10,592 bases of DNA from an uncultured Eubacteriales bacterium. GTDB lineage: Bacteria > Acidobacteriota > Aminicenantia > Aminicenantales > Aminicenantaceae. Each line of letters opens with the position of its first letter. Within the stretch, counting starts at the first letter, position 1. Below, piece after piece: positions 3,076 to 8,755 of the stretch. Both the position numbers and the translations under genes were made by a program. The notes beneath the pieces were generated by a model, which saw only the letters and a list, made by a program, of their open reading frames with translations, was not told where the DNA came from and ran no database searches. The DNA lies in contig CAZLBV010000198.1 in the NCBI GenBank assembly GCA_964557845.1, positions 1-10,592 of the forward strand, read 5' to 3'.

Positions 3076-4929
3076 TTATTTCCGGGGGTATATCCCCTCT
3101 CTTCTGGGCCGTGATTTTGTTTCCCAATTATAGGTAAGGGGTTGGGTCTGTTCTTCTTCATCTTCCGTCTCTTTTGGGCTGCCGGGAACCCTCACGCTGC
3201 TTTTTGCTCTGGATTTATCGATCCGGAAAGATCTTTCGGCTGCGTTTAAGACTTCGGTACGAAGGCCTTCCTCTGAGATCTCTTCGGTGAATTCTTTTCT
3301 TCCTTCTACCAGATCATGAATATAATCCTGGATCTGTTCTTGGGAGTAAAATTTTTTTATATCCCATTCCTCAAGTTCCCGGCCTTCCACATGGGTGATC
3401 TCTTTGGTGCCGAGTTGGCCTTTTTCATAGCGGTTGGTCCCGCGCAGATCCCCTCTTTGTATCTGGGCCATGAGGCTGATAGGGACTCGGTTGGCCTTGC
3501 GGACCATCTGTTTTTTGCTGCGGCCGTTTTCTGCATATTCCTTGATTATCTCTCCCATGCCCCCGGTGTTGTACTGCAGAAATTTCAGTTTGTCCGGATA
3601 ATTAGCGGCCAGGGTCATTATGATCTCATAAAAGTGATTGACCTTGGCGCCGCGGGAACCTATGATAAATGGATCCGTGCCCACGATACGGACAGATTCA
3701 CCTGCTTTGAGCGGCTGGCTGGCAAAACTATGGGTGCTTTCTCCCCAGAGATAGGCTAGAGTTGCCTGTTCCGGGGTTAGTTCCTGAGCAAAGGGCATGA
3801 TCGTGTTTCTTCTGGTGATAAAGGCGAACACCAATCCATCCAGTTCCTCGAGCGGAGGGAGATTGATCGATTTTGAAAAGATGCCGACCATTTTTCCTTT
3901 GAGGTTGACCTTTAGCTTCCGGCGCGCTATGACCGCCCGGCCGTTCGCCGTGAGGCTTTCATCCAGAAAGTCCACATCGCCGTTGGATTTGATCATGACA
4001 TTTTCAAACAGGGCGCTTTTATCAATGAGAGCATTATACATGGCTTCCTGGTATTTTTGTTCTACATCGGTCTTAACGAAAAAGTTGTTCTCTGAACCTA
4101 AAGCCGATCCATCCCTGCGCAAAAAGCAGATATCATCCTGAGTAACTAAAGTCTTTTCCCCTTTATCGTAATCCAGTCCGAGCTGATGGCAGGACCAGGT
4201 CGATTTTCCGGTGGCCGTAAGGCCGAATAAAAACACGCCGTAGCGTTTCAACTTGTCATCCGAGCCCCTGACCGTCACTATTTTAGTCCCGGCATGCAGG
4301 CCCAGCATCCCCTCACGATCCGCTGCCCACATGGCCTGCCGGAGAAACCCCTTTTTATCTTCACCCATATAATCGGTGCCCAGCGCGATATTGATGTTGT
4401 ATTCCGGAAGAACCAGCACCTGCTGCCGGATAGGATGCTCCTCAGGGATATGGATCATTATGAATTCAGGCCCCGGCCTTTTTGAAGGCTTGAACATGGT
4501 CGTTCCCCACATGAGCCCCAGCCGGTAATTGATGAGATCTGCTTCAGATAACACCAAGCTGCACATGGGATTATAGGTATCGTTTTCTCCCATCCTACGC
4601 TTGATGAGAAAAAAAGGCAGGGTCCGCAGCAGATGCAAAACTTTATCCAATTCTTCAGGGGCTGCGGCAATCAAAGCTTCCTGCTGGGAGGTCGGCCGAT
4701 GCAGGCGCACGGCGGGATTGCCCAAGTAGACGGTTCTGGGAGCGATGCGACTCGAGATGGCTGATCTCCATCCATAAGAACCGTATTTAGTTTTGATACC
4801 GGTGGCTTTGGCCCTGGGTTCCAGCCATTTCAGGTCTACTCTTTTTATATTAGGGCCGTTAAGCACCACAGCCAGTTCCTGGGCGAATTTTTTATAAGCG
4901 TCTTGGTTGTAGATAGTTTGATCACTCAT
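3076..4929 (-). CDS. pckA: Phosphoenolpyruvate carboxykinase (ATP-type, PckA family) with about 80-aa acidic/basic C-terminal extension
   Basis: Collinear with E. coli PckA motifs. YMGEDKKG matches the kinase-1a motif [20 protein letters not shown] matches the P-loop [19 protein letters not shown] matches the metal-binding [36 protein letters not shown] matches [33 protein letters not shown] matches the adenine-binding LVNTGWNG. Confidence 0.7.
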   Translation of the reverse strand: [617 protein letters not shown]

Positions 4930-4975
4930 TGGTAAGCCATATTGTTTTTCTGAACCATGCCAGGTTTATAAATTG

Positions 4976-7315
4976 TCAGGTTTCCTGGTTAAAAATTATT
5001 TTTTTTATATCTTCATCCTTAGCTGTTCCGCTGTTAAAAATGAAACAGCGTGTGCATTCGAGCAGATGACGGTAAAAATTTCTCTGAAAATCTATTCTTT
5101 CTGGAGTGGTCACCAAAAGATGGGGATTAAAAAAGGGTGAAGCATCGCTTGGGGTCTTCTGGACTCCTATGGTTTCTCCGGCTTCCAGAAAGCGGAGAAC
5201 ATCTTCTGGGTCTGCCTCAAACAATGGAGGCGAGAATTTATCATTTTTAAGAATAAACACCCATTTAAGCGCCGTGCGTTTGACATGTTTGGCCGGGCCC
5301 TCTATCCAGTAGGGATCAAGGAGGGCCATGGATTTTTTCGAGGCCGTATAACAAAAGGGTGAGCCCCTGTCCAGCCGGCAGTCATCTATTTGGAGGCATT
5401 TTTCATTCGTACAATCTTCCTTGCGGGTAATGACGTTTTCGCATTTGCTGTGGTCGAATAGGGATGCCAATTCTGGATAGGAATCGACTGTATTGGTCGG
5501 CATAAACAGTTTCCTGTCGATCGCATCCGCCAGGGGAGTTCCTGCGGAAAAGCGGACGAAAATACAGTCATTGGAATGCAGCTTGGCCTGAGGATCATTT
5601 AGTAGGGAAAAGAAGAGTTCGGTTTTTTTGGTGCCTTTGGGGCCGATCAGTACCAGGCCTTGCCCGTTGAAATCCAGGGACATCCCCCGGACTGCATTGG
5701 AATTGAACAGGCGCTCGGATATATCCATGATCATACCTACTGCCAGGCTCCGGAGGGGACCATAATGATCAGCATTCACTACGATCCCGGTTTTTGTCTC
5801 GCTGTTATAGAAAACCCTTGGTTCCCTTCCCGGGATATTATCAACGGCATAAATGATCCCATGGGGCTCTAGATTGGCCTCTAATTCTGCGGGATACCAG
5901 TTTTCCAGCCAGAAGTCGTACAGATGGGATACATTTGTTCTTAGTTGAACGATCACACCATTTATATTGGCGTTCCATTCAAAATAATTTTGGTATGTGA
6001 GGTGGGATTCCATTTCTCCCACAAGGGCATCACGCATTTGGACCGAAATAGAGCCATCTGCCGGGACTGTTCCCCGGGTGTTGGTGAGAGTATTGTTCAG
6101 AGCGATCTTCTTGACTTTTCGGGCGGTTTTAAGATGGGTCAAAGCTTCGGTGATCCTGTCCATCCCCTTCTCTAGATTTTGCATGGAGGTCGCATAAGAC
6201 AAGCGGATGTAATCATCGGCGCCGAAGGCATCACCCGGAACCACTGCTACCTTGGCTTCCTTAAGCAGGTAATATGCCAGGCCGTAAGAGTTCCTGATCT
6301 GGGTTTGGTTGAATTCTTTTTTGTAATAGGCAGAAAAATTAGGGAATAGATAAAAAGCGCCCTGAGGTTTAAAGCAGGATAATTCCGGGATGCTTTGTAT
6401 GCGCATCAAAACATAATTTCTGCGCCGCTGAAATTCAGCCTGCATTTTCGAAATCTCATGTTGCGGTCCGTTAAGGGCTTCCAAACTGGCTTTTTGGGAG
6501 ATGGAACAGGGATTTGAAGTCGTGTGGCTCTGGATTTTTGCCATCCCGCTGATAATGTCTGCCGGCCCGGCAGTGTAACCGATTCTCCACCCCGTCATGG
6601 AATAGGATTTGGAGACTCCATTGATGATGATCGTTTTTTTCTTAACTTCTTCTCCTAAAGAAGCAAAGCTGAAAAAGCGAAAATCGTCGAAGATGAGTTT
6701 TTCGTAGATCTCATCTGCGATAACATAAATATTCTCTTCCAGGATAATATCGGCTAGAGCCTGGAGTTCGTTTTTTTGGTAGCATGCACCGGTTGGATTA
6801 GAGGGATTGTTTAGAATTAAAGCCTTGGTGGCAGGAGTGATGGCTGCTTTGAGCTGCTCGGGAGTGAGGAGAAAGCCATTTTCTTCTCTGGTGGGGATGA
6901 AAACGGTTTTACCTTCAGCCAGAGAGACCGCATGTGGGTAGGTTACCCAGTAAGGCGCGGGTACTATGACTTCATCTCCTTTGTTTATAATGGCTTGGAT
7001 GGCATGATACAGAGAACTTTTTGCTCCTGTGGAAACAATTATTTCATTCCGTTCATAGGAAAGGCCCGAATCTTCTTTGAATTTCTTGATTATCGCATCT
7101 TTGAGCAGAGGGATGCCTTCTGCCTGAGTGTATTTGGTGAAATCATCTTTTATGGCCTGGATCCCGGCGTTTTTTATATTTTCTGGAGTTGCGAAATCAG
7201 GCTCGCCCACACTGAGATCGACGACGTCTATCCCCTCGGCCTTCATAGCCTTGGCCTTGCTGGTTACCTTGAGGGTGGGGGATTCCCCAATTAAATTTGC
7301 CTTTTCTGATACCAT
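4976..7315 (-). CDS. Fusion protein: N-terminal class-I aspartate aminotransferase (aa 1-~397; nt ~6125-7315) + C-terminal truncated, motif-divergent PEP-carboxykinase-like P-loop domain (aa ~400-779; nt 4976-~6118)
   Basis: N-terminal half has GEPDF, [15 protein letters not shown] and the PLP-lysine motif [13 protein letters not shown] (bacterial AspAT). C-terminal half is collinear with PEPCK. [24 protein letters not shown] aligns with [25 protein letters not shown]. P-loop [13 protein letters not shown] is present. LHSNDCIFV aligns with [39 protein letters not shown] aligns with [38 protein letters not shown] aligns with LVNTGWN. The kinase-1a Lys-Lys and the first metal-binding Asp are not conserved. 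RBS AAGGAA upstream; 30-nt gap to the flotillin stop. Confidence 0.8.
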   Translation of the reverse strand: [779 protein letters not shown]

Positions 7316-7345: not shown

Positions 7346-8755
7346 TTAATTCTCTTCTTTTTCTTCCTCAGGATTCAGTTTATCTTTCATATATTTCTTT
7401 ATATCGACTCCAGTAAGAGATTTAACCACCTCGGGCATCTGGGCAATTATCTCAGCGACCTGACCCGTAATTTTTGAGGCGCCTGTTCCCTTGTCCCCTC
7501 CGATCAGCACGATCTTCTCGATCTTAGAGAGGGGCTCAGAGACGGCCCTGGCTAATTCCGGTAAACTGTTGAGGTACATTTCCAGAATGGCTGCCTGGTT
7601 GAATTTTTCCCAGGCTTTAGCTTTTTCCAGCATGGATTCGGCTTCGGCGAATCCGCTTAATTTGATCTTTTCCGCTTCCGCTGATCCTTCAAGCTTCATA
7701 GCGACTGACTTTCCTTTGGCTTCTGACTGGATGCGGTATTCTTCTGCATCTGCCTCTGCTTTTATCTGATTCTTTCTGGCTTCAGCCGGTTTAATGACAT
7801 TGGATTCAAGTTCTTTTTCGCGGCGTTCGATCTCCAGTTCCTCGATTTTTATGGCTTCCTGTTTTTCGATCTGCTTGACCTTGGCTTCCTGTTTCTTTAA
7901 TTCCTGATTGATCTTGTAACGTTCAATTTCGTAGGCAAAATCCGCGATGGCTTTTTTCTGATTGACTTCTACCTGTGACTCAGCTTTTTTAGCTTCATTC
8001 TCCCATTGGGCTTTTGCGATCAGGGCTTCGGCTTGCAGCCGGGCAACCTCTCCTTCTTTTTTCGCTTCTGAGGATTTGATGATGGCTTCTTTATCGGTTT
8101 CAGCCTCTGCAATGGCAGCATCCCGCTTGACTGCCGCGATCTGAGGTTTTCCCAGAGCAGCCAGGTATCCCTGTGTGTCGCTGATATCTTTCAGGGAAAA
8201 AGACATGATAAGCAGCCCCATTTGTGAAAAATCCTTTTGAGCTGCAGCGAACACATTCTGGGAGAATTCATCGCGATTGCGGTAGATCTGCTCAACTGTC
8301 ATTTTACCAAGAACTTCACGCATTTTTCCTTCCAGTATATTGACCGACACGTCCCTGATGCCTTCCTTGCCGATCCCCAGAAATTGTTCTGCGGCTTTTT
8401 GAATGGATTGTTCCGAGGATTCGATCTTAACCTGGGCCACCGCCTCTGCCATGATATGTACACCGCCAAAAGTCAGCACTTCCGGAGTTTTGATGTTTAT
8501 GGAGATGATCTCCATAGGAAGCACATCTACGGTTTCCAGAAAGGGGAGAACAAAGGTGCCGCCGCCGACTCGGTAGCGGTATCCGATCTTGGTTTTAGTC
8601 CCATCCGGGGCAATGGCTGTTCTTTTCCTTCCGCCGGATATTATGAGCACTTCATGTGGGCCGACTTTACGGTATTGTTTGGCCATGAGAAAAGAAAGCA
8701 GGCCAAGGATGACTATGATTATTCCGAAAAGAATTAAATAGGAGACAAGACTCAT
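7346..8755 (-). CDS. Flotillin / SPFH (band-7) domain protein (FloT/YuaG-like) with N-terminal TM helix and long Glu/Ala/Lys-rich coiled coil
   Basis: N-terminal hydrophobic helix LILFGIIIVILGLLSFLMA. SPFH core HEVLIISGG...VLPFLETV...TVEQIYRNRDEF. Extended EA-rich heptad region (AEAETDKEA...KELESNVIKPAEARKNQIKAEADAEEY). C-terminal flotillin tail LIGGDKGTGASKITGQVAEI. RBS AGGAGG 5 nt before the ATG. Confidence 0.85.
   Translation of the reverse strand: MSLVSYLILFGIIIVILGLLSFLMAKQYRKVGPHEVLIISGGRKRTAIAPDGTKTKIGYRYRVGGGTFVLPFLETVDVLPMEIISINIKTPEVLTFGGVHIMAEAVAQVKIESSEQSIQKAAEQFLGIGKEGIRDVSVNILEGKMREVLGKMTVEQIYRNRDEFSQNVFAAAQKDFSQMGLLIMSFSLKDISDTQGYLAALGKPQIAAVKRDAAIAEAETDKEAIIKSSEAKKEGEVARLQAEALIAKAQWENEAKKAESQVEVNQKKAIADFAYEIERYKINQELKKQEAKVKQIEKQEAIKIEELEIERREKELESNVIKPAEARKNQIKAEADAEEYRIQSEAKGKSVAMKLEGSAEAEKIKLSGFAEAESMLEKAKAWEKFNQAAILEMYLNSLPELARAVSEPLSKIEKIVLIGGDKGTGASKITGQVAEIIAQMPEVVKSLTGVDIKKYMKDKLNPEEEKEEN

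Follow-up and report, generated by a model that had tools for sequence, protein, structure and literature searches.

Why should an aspartate aminotransferase (AspAT) carry, as its C-terminal domain, a degenerate version of the phosphoenolpyruvate carboxykinase (PEPCK) fold, when a gene for PEPCK itself lies directly downstream? This question is raised by an uncultured bacterium of the Aminicenantes (OP8) and its contig CAZLBV010000198.1, of which the whole stretch of 10,592 nucleotides was analysed and is referred to here as the window. On its minus strand, a gene for a 779-residue fusion protein (4976..7315; open reading frame list and PF00155) is separated by a 46-nt spacer, from stop codon to start codon (4930..4975), from a gene for a 617-residue protein of the ATP-type PEPCK family (3076..4929; PF01293 and residue mapping). 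The C-terminal domain of the fusion, for which the Pfam copy searched has no model, comprises 380 residues (fusion residues 400-779; 4979..6118) and is called domain X throughout. The original prediction for this DNA described two PEPCK-fold modules on the same strand, 46 nt apart; both the layout and the fold are borne out by the open reading frames, by structure prediction with AlphaFold2 (AF2) and Foldseek, and by hhalign. The reading that we favor, at about an even chance, is that X serves as a pseudo-PEPCK adaptor or sensor and thereby links AspAT with PEPCK where their reactions share oxaloacetate, i.e., along the route between aspartate, oxaloacetate and phosphoenolpyruvate (PEP).

The N-terminal half of the fusion (residues 1-396; 6128..7315) is apparently an intact class-I aspartate aminotransferase, as judged from profile matches and motifs. 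PF00155 covers residues 30-388 (E=3e-79, 267 bits; Pfam), and the aspartate transaminase model NF004769 covers residues 7-395 with 449 bits (NCBIfam). Four motifs were found, namely NPSNPTG (170), DEIY (201), SK236SYSMTGWR, in which K236 is the pyridoxal phosphate (PLP) lysine, and IR371LSYA; the PF00155 match and the PLP-lysine motif place this half among the class-I aminotransferases. The linker that leads to X is only ~8 residues long.

The fold of X was not apparent from simple searches. X has no match in Pfam even at E<=10, and X alone finds only hpr-ser in NCBIfam, with E=0.16. A phmmer search of the PDB with X gave nothing relevant, and BLASTP detects no similarity between X and the 617-residue protein. 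Because X has neither a Pfam match nor BLASTP similarity to its neighbor, the PEPCK fold was tested by structure and by profiles. The AF2 model of X, based on 25 homologues, has a pLDDT of 89.5 and a pTM of 0.88, and the top 35 Foldseek matches to this model are all ATP-PEPCKs (E ~1e-17, TMq 0.70-0.75). When the X family was compared by hhalign with the neighbor's family and E. coli PckA, the probability was 93%, with E=4e-7; the range over two comparisons is 86-93%, with E from 4e-7 to 5e-6. That is, X has the two-domain fold of PEPCK and scores below the curated family-profile threshold. It also falls short of the PF07475 (HprK/P) profile cut-off and does not have the domain architecture of HprK. 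The appropriate name for X is therefore a PEPCK-fold pseudoenzyme domain and not a PEPCK: it is homologous to an enzyme, it has lost key catalytic residues, and it is under purifying selection.

The losses become clear when X is compared, motif by motif, with PEPCK in E. coli numbering. It had been claimed that X replaces the Lys-Lys motif with HYGPLRSL and the metal-binding Asp-Asp with SND, and hhalign indeed places both opposite the respective PEPCK motifs. The label then given to the Lys-Lys motif, kinase-1a, was mistaken: YxGExKKG is the PEPCK-specific motif, and kinase-1a is the P-loop. In X, residues 115-125 (5744..5776, minus strand; hhalign columns) correspond to this motif, GTxYxGExKKG, and include H118-Y119-G-P-L-R123-S124, in which R123 stands for K212 and S124 for the Mn ligand K213; stand-alone relatives of X read YYGQxKSW here. 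The counterpart of Y207 is H118, which is variable; the adjacent Y119 is conserved. At the position of the Mn-ligand His (H232, the catalytic His of HprK), X has R144 (5687..5689, minus strand), as assigned by spacing and HMMER. R144 precedes the P-loop Lys by 21 residues, compared with 21 in HprK and 22 in E. coli PckA, and the HMMER alignment pairs VRGM of X with MHGV of HprK, which supports this placement. By hhalign it is N141, not R144, that lies opposite H232; neither residue is a His in the window, and the stand-alone relatives read SIHGA at the site of R144.

The nucleotide-binding motifs of X are altered as well. The P-loop, G159PKGTKKT166 (5621..5644, minus strand), is the counterpart of kinase-1a GxxGxGKT and is also non-canonical, a feature that goes beyond the earlier description: G253 is replaced by K164, and the Lys (K165) and Thr (T166) are retained. 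Among 82 Aminicenantes-type sequences, K165 is conserved at >=98%, position 166 is Thr or Ser, and position 164 varies among K, R, N, S and Q. The kinase-2 pair D268-D269 corresponds by hhalign to N183-D184 (5567..5572, minus strand), within the site S182-N183-D184, so that an Asn has taken the place of the first Asp and only the second persists, as D184; stand-alone relatives have DD. The Mn2+ ligands K213, H232 and D269 are thus represented by S124, R144 (or N141) and D184, the Asp alone being retained. Overall, X conforms neither to YxGExKKG, nor to the set of Mn2+ ligands, nor to the P-loop consensus GxxGxGK[ST].

X is also truncated at both ends. In a permissive hhalign alignment, residue 3 of X aligns with residue 65 of the 617-residue protein, in a low-confidence stretch; X would accordingly begin past the R65 segment, in agreement with the earlier claim that it lacks the N-terminal segment with the oxaloacetate-binding Arg. 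At the opposite end, X stops soon after its NSG (NTG) motif and is missing the C-terminal subdomain of PEPCK (85-150 residues), which had not been remarked upon before. At the position of R333, the profile alignment shows no Arg and instead an insertion with four cysteines, C236-x4-C241-x5-C247-x8-C256 (5351..5413, minus strand). All four are conserved at >=98% in Aminicenantes and are also found in the stand-alone relatives P0251 and P0265, and not in PEPCK; the Zixibacteria-type clade has kept only one of them. This insertion is a possible metal (Zn?) knuckle. From these alignments, we conclude that X has lost the elements with which PEPCK handles Mn2+ and, apparently, oxaloacetate, and that it keeps the Lys/Thr of the P-loop and a single acidic residue.

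The 617-residue neighbor presents the opposite picture. Its hallmark motifs were found where they had been predicted, namely Y187MGEDKKG194, G236LTATGKST244 and T263QDD266. For the residue mapping, the numbering of the E. coli PckA sequence was confirmed and the sequence was then aligned with the 617-residue protein. In this alignment, Y207 corresponds to Y187, K212/K213 to K192/K193, H232 to H212, G253-K254-T255 to G241-K242-S243, D268-D269 to D265-D266, and R333 to R331; R65 corresponds to R61 within one column. All mapped catalytic residues are retained, and they are invariant across seven relatives. The protein passes the PF01293 gathering score (91.2 bits versus 26.5), but remains under the NCBIfam cut-offs of NF006821 (281 bits versus 369) and TIGR00224 (30.6 versus 590), and against PckA chains of known structure it reaches no better than E ~1e-6, over 150 residues. 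The designation 'canonical' in the original prediction is therefore too strong, because the scores fall below the family thresholds and the sequence is divergent. The 617-residue protein is a divergent PEPCK subfamily in which every catalytic residue is retained, and it is predicted to be active.

One further feature of this PEPCK is a C-terminal tail of ~50 residues (570-617; 3079..3222, minus strand), identified from alignments. It consists of a variable acidic/Pro linker followed by a basic motif, KSRPRRxGxxxR (more generally [KA][ST]RPRRxGxWRxR). The tail is kept in Aminicenantes and in the PEPCKs of two distant loci (ARPRRPGVWRWR), L003 (7291-9132) and L087 (9056-10420), and is present neither in E. 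coli PckA nor in the natural X::PEPCK fusion described below. As a speculation, it could be a docking peptide.

What ties X to this PEPCK is gene linkage and, above all, a gene fusion. A genome scan found X encoded in at least 430 genomes at species level, from Aminicenantes and their relatives; the locus counts given here refer to the best 80 of the 430 genomes, all of them Aminicenantes. X is in frame with AspAT in 80/80 of these loci, and in ~70 of them the PEPCK gene directly follows the fusion. The spacer between the two genes has a median of ~22 nt, with a range from -9 to 248, over 69 related loci. The window's spacing of 46 nt between co-oriented genes is thus operon-like, as had been proposed from the spacing alone, and no terminator-like site was found in the spacer on the minus strand. 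More distant loci vary on the same theme. In L003, whose X is 45% identical, the order is Band7, AspAT, X, PEPCK and nucleoside diphosphate kinase (NDK); in L088, AspAT::X is followed by NDK and then PEPCK; and in L087, from Calditrichota, Band7 precedes AspAT::X, and an NDK-PEPCK pair is located 4.6 kb away on the other strand.

The strongest evidence is provided by P0254, an 899-residue protein in which an X-type domain is fused directly to a PEPCK of the neighbor's subfamily; the same sequence was recovered from three independent assemblies. The X part shares 32% identity with X of the window (E 5e-56), has the R/R/ND states at the altered positions, and has no P-loop; the PEPCK part shares 40% identity with the Aminicenantes subfamily (E 1e-130). 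By the Rosetta-stone argument, this natural X::PEPCK fusion indicates that X and this PEPCK act together, and since P0254 has no P-loop, X would need no nucleotide site to do so. No AspAT gene is found near P0254, either in the 8 kb upstream or in the ~3.3 kb downstream. P0254 (L090, 8001-10700) is on an AT-rich contig, and its neighbors have V4R/Robl_LC7 matches as well as faint TFIIE/HTH matches; this suggests that the host is archaeal.

These observations are consistent with the following mechanism. X would go back to an old family of PEPCK/HprK-like P-loop proteins that are short and stand alone, and a single fusion event would have joined one such protein to a class-I aspartate aminotransferase. 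X would subsequently have lost the residues for Mn-dependent oxaloacetate decarboxylation and for phosphoryl transfer, and would now work, without catalysis of its own, together with the intact PEPCK whose gene is co-transcribed 46 nt downstream. Most likely, it would serve as a docking module that joins AspAT and PEPCK, so that labile oxaloacetate could be handed across; it may still bind phosphate or another anion through the P-loop Lys/Thr, the acidic residue and its many conserved Arg/Lys. The suggestion that X tethers AspAT to PEPCK had been made earlier, and it gains indirect support from the adjacency conserved across phyla and from P0254; we infer the physical contact with PEPCK, the channeling, and the binding of ligands by X. 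More tentatively, and in a form that we think somewhat likelier to be wrong than right, X could be a purpose-built adaptor that hetero-oligomerizes with the live PEPCK, possibly also capturing its basic C-terminal tail, in a dedicated Asp-OAA-PEP metabolon (OAA, oxaloacetate). If so, a bacterial enzyme would be recruiting its pathway neighbor by means of a pseudo-copy of that neighbor, across hundreds of uncultured species.

Several observations weigh against a role of X as adaptor or sensor between AspAT and PEPCK. In nine of the 80 loci, a SIS gene directly follows the fusion and no PEPCK is adjacent, and the motifs of X are unchanged; in the Zixibacteria locus L089, there is no PEPCK within 3 kb. 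All copies of the P0254-type fusion belong to one cluster and come from one sequencing project. The AF2 model of the whole fusion (pTM 0.52, linker pLDDT <50) is uninformative on how AspAT and X pack. The contact between X and PEPCK is predicted from gene linkage and fusion. Lastly, the invariant P-loop Lys, the Thr/Ser, Asp/Glu184 and the many conserved polar residues of X in Aminicenantes would also fit an active enzyme.

A full-library profile search (E<=1e-3) shows that the X family comprises 392 clusters at 50% identity. Many members are stand-alone proteins of 350-560 residues that possess YYGQxKSW, SIHGA, APTGTGK[ST] and DD, a plausible catalytic motif set. These stand-alone relatives match only one PEPCK model, NF006821, with E from 1e-5 to 1e-18, which is also the neighbor's best model; two of them carry a newer, weak label, PF27840 'ScmC'. 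The stand-alone family is an uncharacterized branch of the PEPCK/HprK superfamily. In a neighbor-joining tree, the AspAT-fused sequences group in a single derived branch, with R123 and R144 in common. Their P-loops read GT[KRNSQ]K[TS] in Aminicenantes and take degenerate forms such as GMKRGS, GLKRGS and GMGRGT in the Zixibacteria-type clade. In other fused lineages the P-loop is fully degenerate (APNVKKER in P0241, GSSENDIA in P0254), so that nucleotide chemistry seems dispensable for fused X. The fusion partners seen for X are class-I aminotransferases and, once, PEPCK.

Some stand-alone members of the family have features of their own. P0321 (754 aa) contains an intein (PF14890, E=1.5e-16) at residues ~216-393, right after the P-loop GTGK, which is a typical intein site in functional P-loop proteins. 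Large genes precede two others, namely one for a 477-residue product with no Pfam match (L005, 1009-2442) before P0117 and one for a 562-residue product with a faint Radical_SAM match (L093, 4194-5882) before P0251; both are candidate partners of the ancestral family.

As to its conservation, X is under strong purifying selection and is not decaying. Selection was judged from amino-acid conservation relative to neighboring genes, as the nearest relatives are 60-71% identical and synonymous sites would be saturated. The mean identity to the window is 76% for AspAT, 75% for PEPCK and 66% for X, and 52% and 49% for the SIS and acyltransferase genes, respectively. Across 82 sequences, 92 of the 378 positions of X are conserved at >=98%, including K165, R123, R144, the four Cys and many polar residues. 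Public records name the fusion only as 'pyridoxal phosphate-dependent aminotransferase' or 'hypothetical' (P0002-P0120), and many gene calls begin at an internal Met (MENLEKG...) in the C-terminus of AspAT, which makes X look like a separate protein of 400 residues.

One rival reading is that X is still an enzyme. It would be a phosphotransferase or lyase of altered chemistry, with R123, R144 and K164 in place of the Mn2+ site, acting on a substrate or product of AspAT or on a phosphorylated anion. The near-invariant K165, the retained T/S166 and D/E184, and the many polar residues among the 92 near-invariant positions (R60, N62, H65, R98, N115, R202, K203, E227, N228, N331, N362) are all consistent with this idea, as are the catalytically competent look of the stand-alone family and the intein that one of its members has right after GTGK. 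Moreover, the substitutions H->R, G->K and D->N each make the site more positive, which would be expected of side chains that replace a cation. However, two Mn ligands out of three have been replaced, the substrate arginines are apparently both missing, X ends before the adenine-binding C-terminal part, and the Gly before the P-loop Lys has become a variable residue (K/R/N/S/Q). In addition, the sister fused lineages P0241 and P0254 tolerate complete loss of the P-loop. We thus consider an enzymatic X unlikely.

A different possibility is that X is an allosteric sensor for AspAT only, of PEP, oxaloacetate, a nucleotide or pyrophosphate (PPi), and that the adjacency of PEPCK reflects shared regulation of a pathway, not contact. 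The permanent fusion to AspAT through so short a linker would suit such a sensor, as would the survival of the phosphate-binding elements of X and the nine loci in which X is unchanged without an adjacent PEPCK; in other lineages, NDK is often encoded beside X-family genes, a hint of a connection with nucleotides. P0254 points the other way: with no AspAT nearby, X evidently works with PEPCK even where AspAT is not present in cis. The P-loop losses in P0241 and P0254 likewise speak against an obligatory nucleotide or phosphate sensor, and we regard a sensor confined to AspAT as rather improbable.

Two further explanations are contradicted by the data. That X is a recent, decaying tandem duplicate of the neighboring PEPCK is very improbable: two PEPCK-fold units do lie side by side on the same strand, but X has no BLASTP similarity to PEPCK, it belongs to a deep family of its own, with 392 clusters and stand-alone forms in other lineages, and it is strongly conserved in 430 species genomes. 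The earlier view of X as a duplicated PEPCK turned pseudoenzyme thus survives with respect to the degenerate active site, and not with respect to a local duplication. That X is a second active PEPCK is the least credible of all, since beyond the shared fold it has no PF01293 match, is shortened at both ends, has no apparent equivalent of R65 or R333, and has changed the equivalents of K213 and H232, so that the proposed mapping of R65, Y207, K212/K213, H232 and D268/D269 onto X finds the catalytic residues mostly lost.

The conserved unit around AspAT::X may include a third gene. The minus-strand order in the window is epimerase, GT2, Band7/flotillin, the 779-residue fusion, the 46-nt spacer and the 617-residue PEPCK_ATP protein. 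The Band7/flotillin-like gene (7346..8755, minus strand; PF01145, E=7e-28) is directly upstream of the fusion. Such a gene holds the same position in 76 of the 80 loci, and the remaining four (L059, L066, L067, L079) are on contigs that stop before it would be reached. Band7 also precedes the fusion in L003 (3529-4767) and in the Calditrichota locus L087 (1103-2497). Because this position recurs across loci, the conserved unit may be flotillin-AspAT::X-PEPCK, with the Band7 gene possibly in the same operon as the fusion.

Outside Aminicenantes, NDK recurrently adjoins X-family genes and/or PEPCK: NDK genes are located at 9149-9562 in L003, 2764-3189 in L088, 8527-8940 in L087, 7039-7461 in L004 and 4325-4825 in L094, and in one case the neighboring gene encodes P0245, a stand-alone relative of X whose catalytic motifs are complete. 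This neighborhood hints at a nucleotide-related ancestral role, or at a nucleotide other than ATP for this PEPCK subfamily. In L004 (CP070796.1, 969915-982943, a Zixibacteria 'chromosome'), the gene calls look fragmented at regular steps of ~100 nt, probably because the assembly contains scaffold gaps or is a mosaic; the gene order there cannot be relied upon and was left aside.

The sequence of the window is also present as JGI 3300001335 ML8_10003642 and in a Logan assembly, and its nearest relatives are Aminicenantes metagenome-assembled genomes. The SIS and acyltransferase genes are on the other strand, convergent toward the minus-strand set. The plus strand encodes the C-terminal part of a sigma-54 activator (73-777), whose gene is cut by the start of the window, a type IV pilin-like protein (992-1525) and the GmhA-like SIS protein (2373-2936). 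A longer contig adds genes for LpxK, a lipid A acyltransferase, a PilS-like kinase and T2SS-F. Rfam and tRNA scans of the window gave no matches.

The recognition of X fills a gap in annotation, in that a strongly conserved domain of 380 residues has no model in the Pfam copy searched and is routinely annotated only as 'aminotransferase'. To take X as a PEPCK-fold pseudoenzyme, and its neighbor as the active PEPCK, changes the reconstruction of the Asp/OAA/PEP node in these uncultured anaerobes. The family also offers a natural series from P-loop enzyme to non-catalytic partner, i.e., stand-alone forms with full motifs, AspAT-fused forms with R/R/ND, and a PEPCK-fused form with no P-loop.

Literature searches returned no description of the AspAT::X fusion or of the X domain, and the closest known systems differ from it in instructive ways. 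ATP-PEPCKs (PF01293; E. coli 1aq2, T. cruzi 1ii2) have ~540 residues, compared with 380 in X, which apparently lacks the R65-bearing N-terminal segment, has no C-terminal subdomain and is detected by no PEPCK model. Where these enzymes have K212/K213, H232, GTGKT and DD, X has R/S, R, GTKKT and ND, and where they have R333 it has the Cys4 insertion. The C-terminal domain of HPr kinase/phosphorylase (PF07475), with its HprK-related and ScmC-like relatives, aligns to only ~135 residues of X, with scores below the cut-offs, and X additionally has a full PEPCK N-terminal lobe. A closer functional parallel is found in prozymes, such as the AdoMetDC prozyme of trypanosomatids, i.e., dead paralogues under purifying selection beside, or bound to, an active relative. 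Like these, X is a degenerate paralogue kept next to an active relative; unlike them, it is fused to a different enzyme, AspAT, which shares a metabolite with that relative. Finally, in the oxaloacetate metabolon of malate dehydrogenase (MDH), citrate synthase and AspAT, enzymes that share unstable oxaloacetate are kept together, and the logic proposed for AspAT and PEPCK is the same. Unlike in such metabolons, the channeling is in this case a predicted one, and the proposed adaptor is itself a pseudoenzyme domain, homologous to one of the two partners that it would join.

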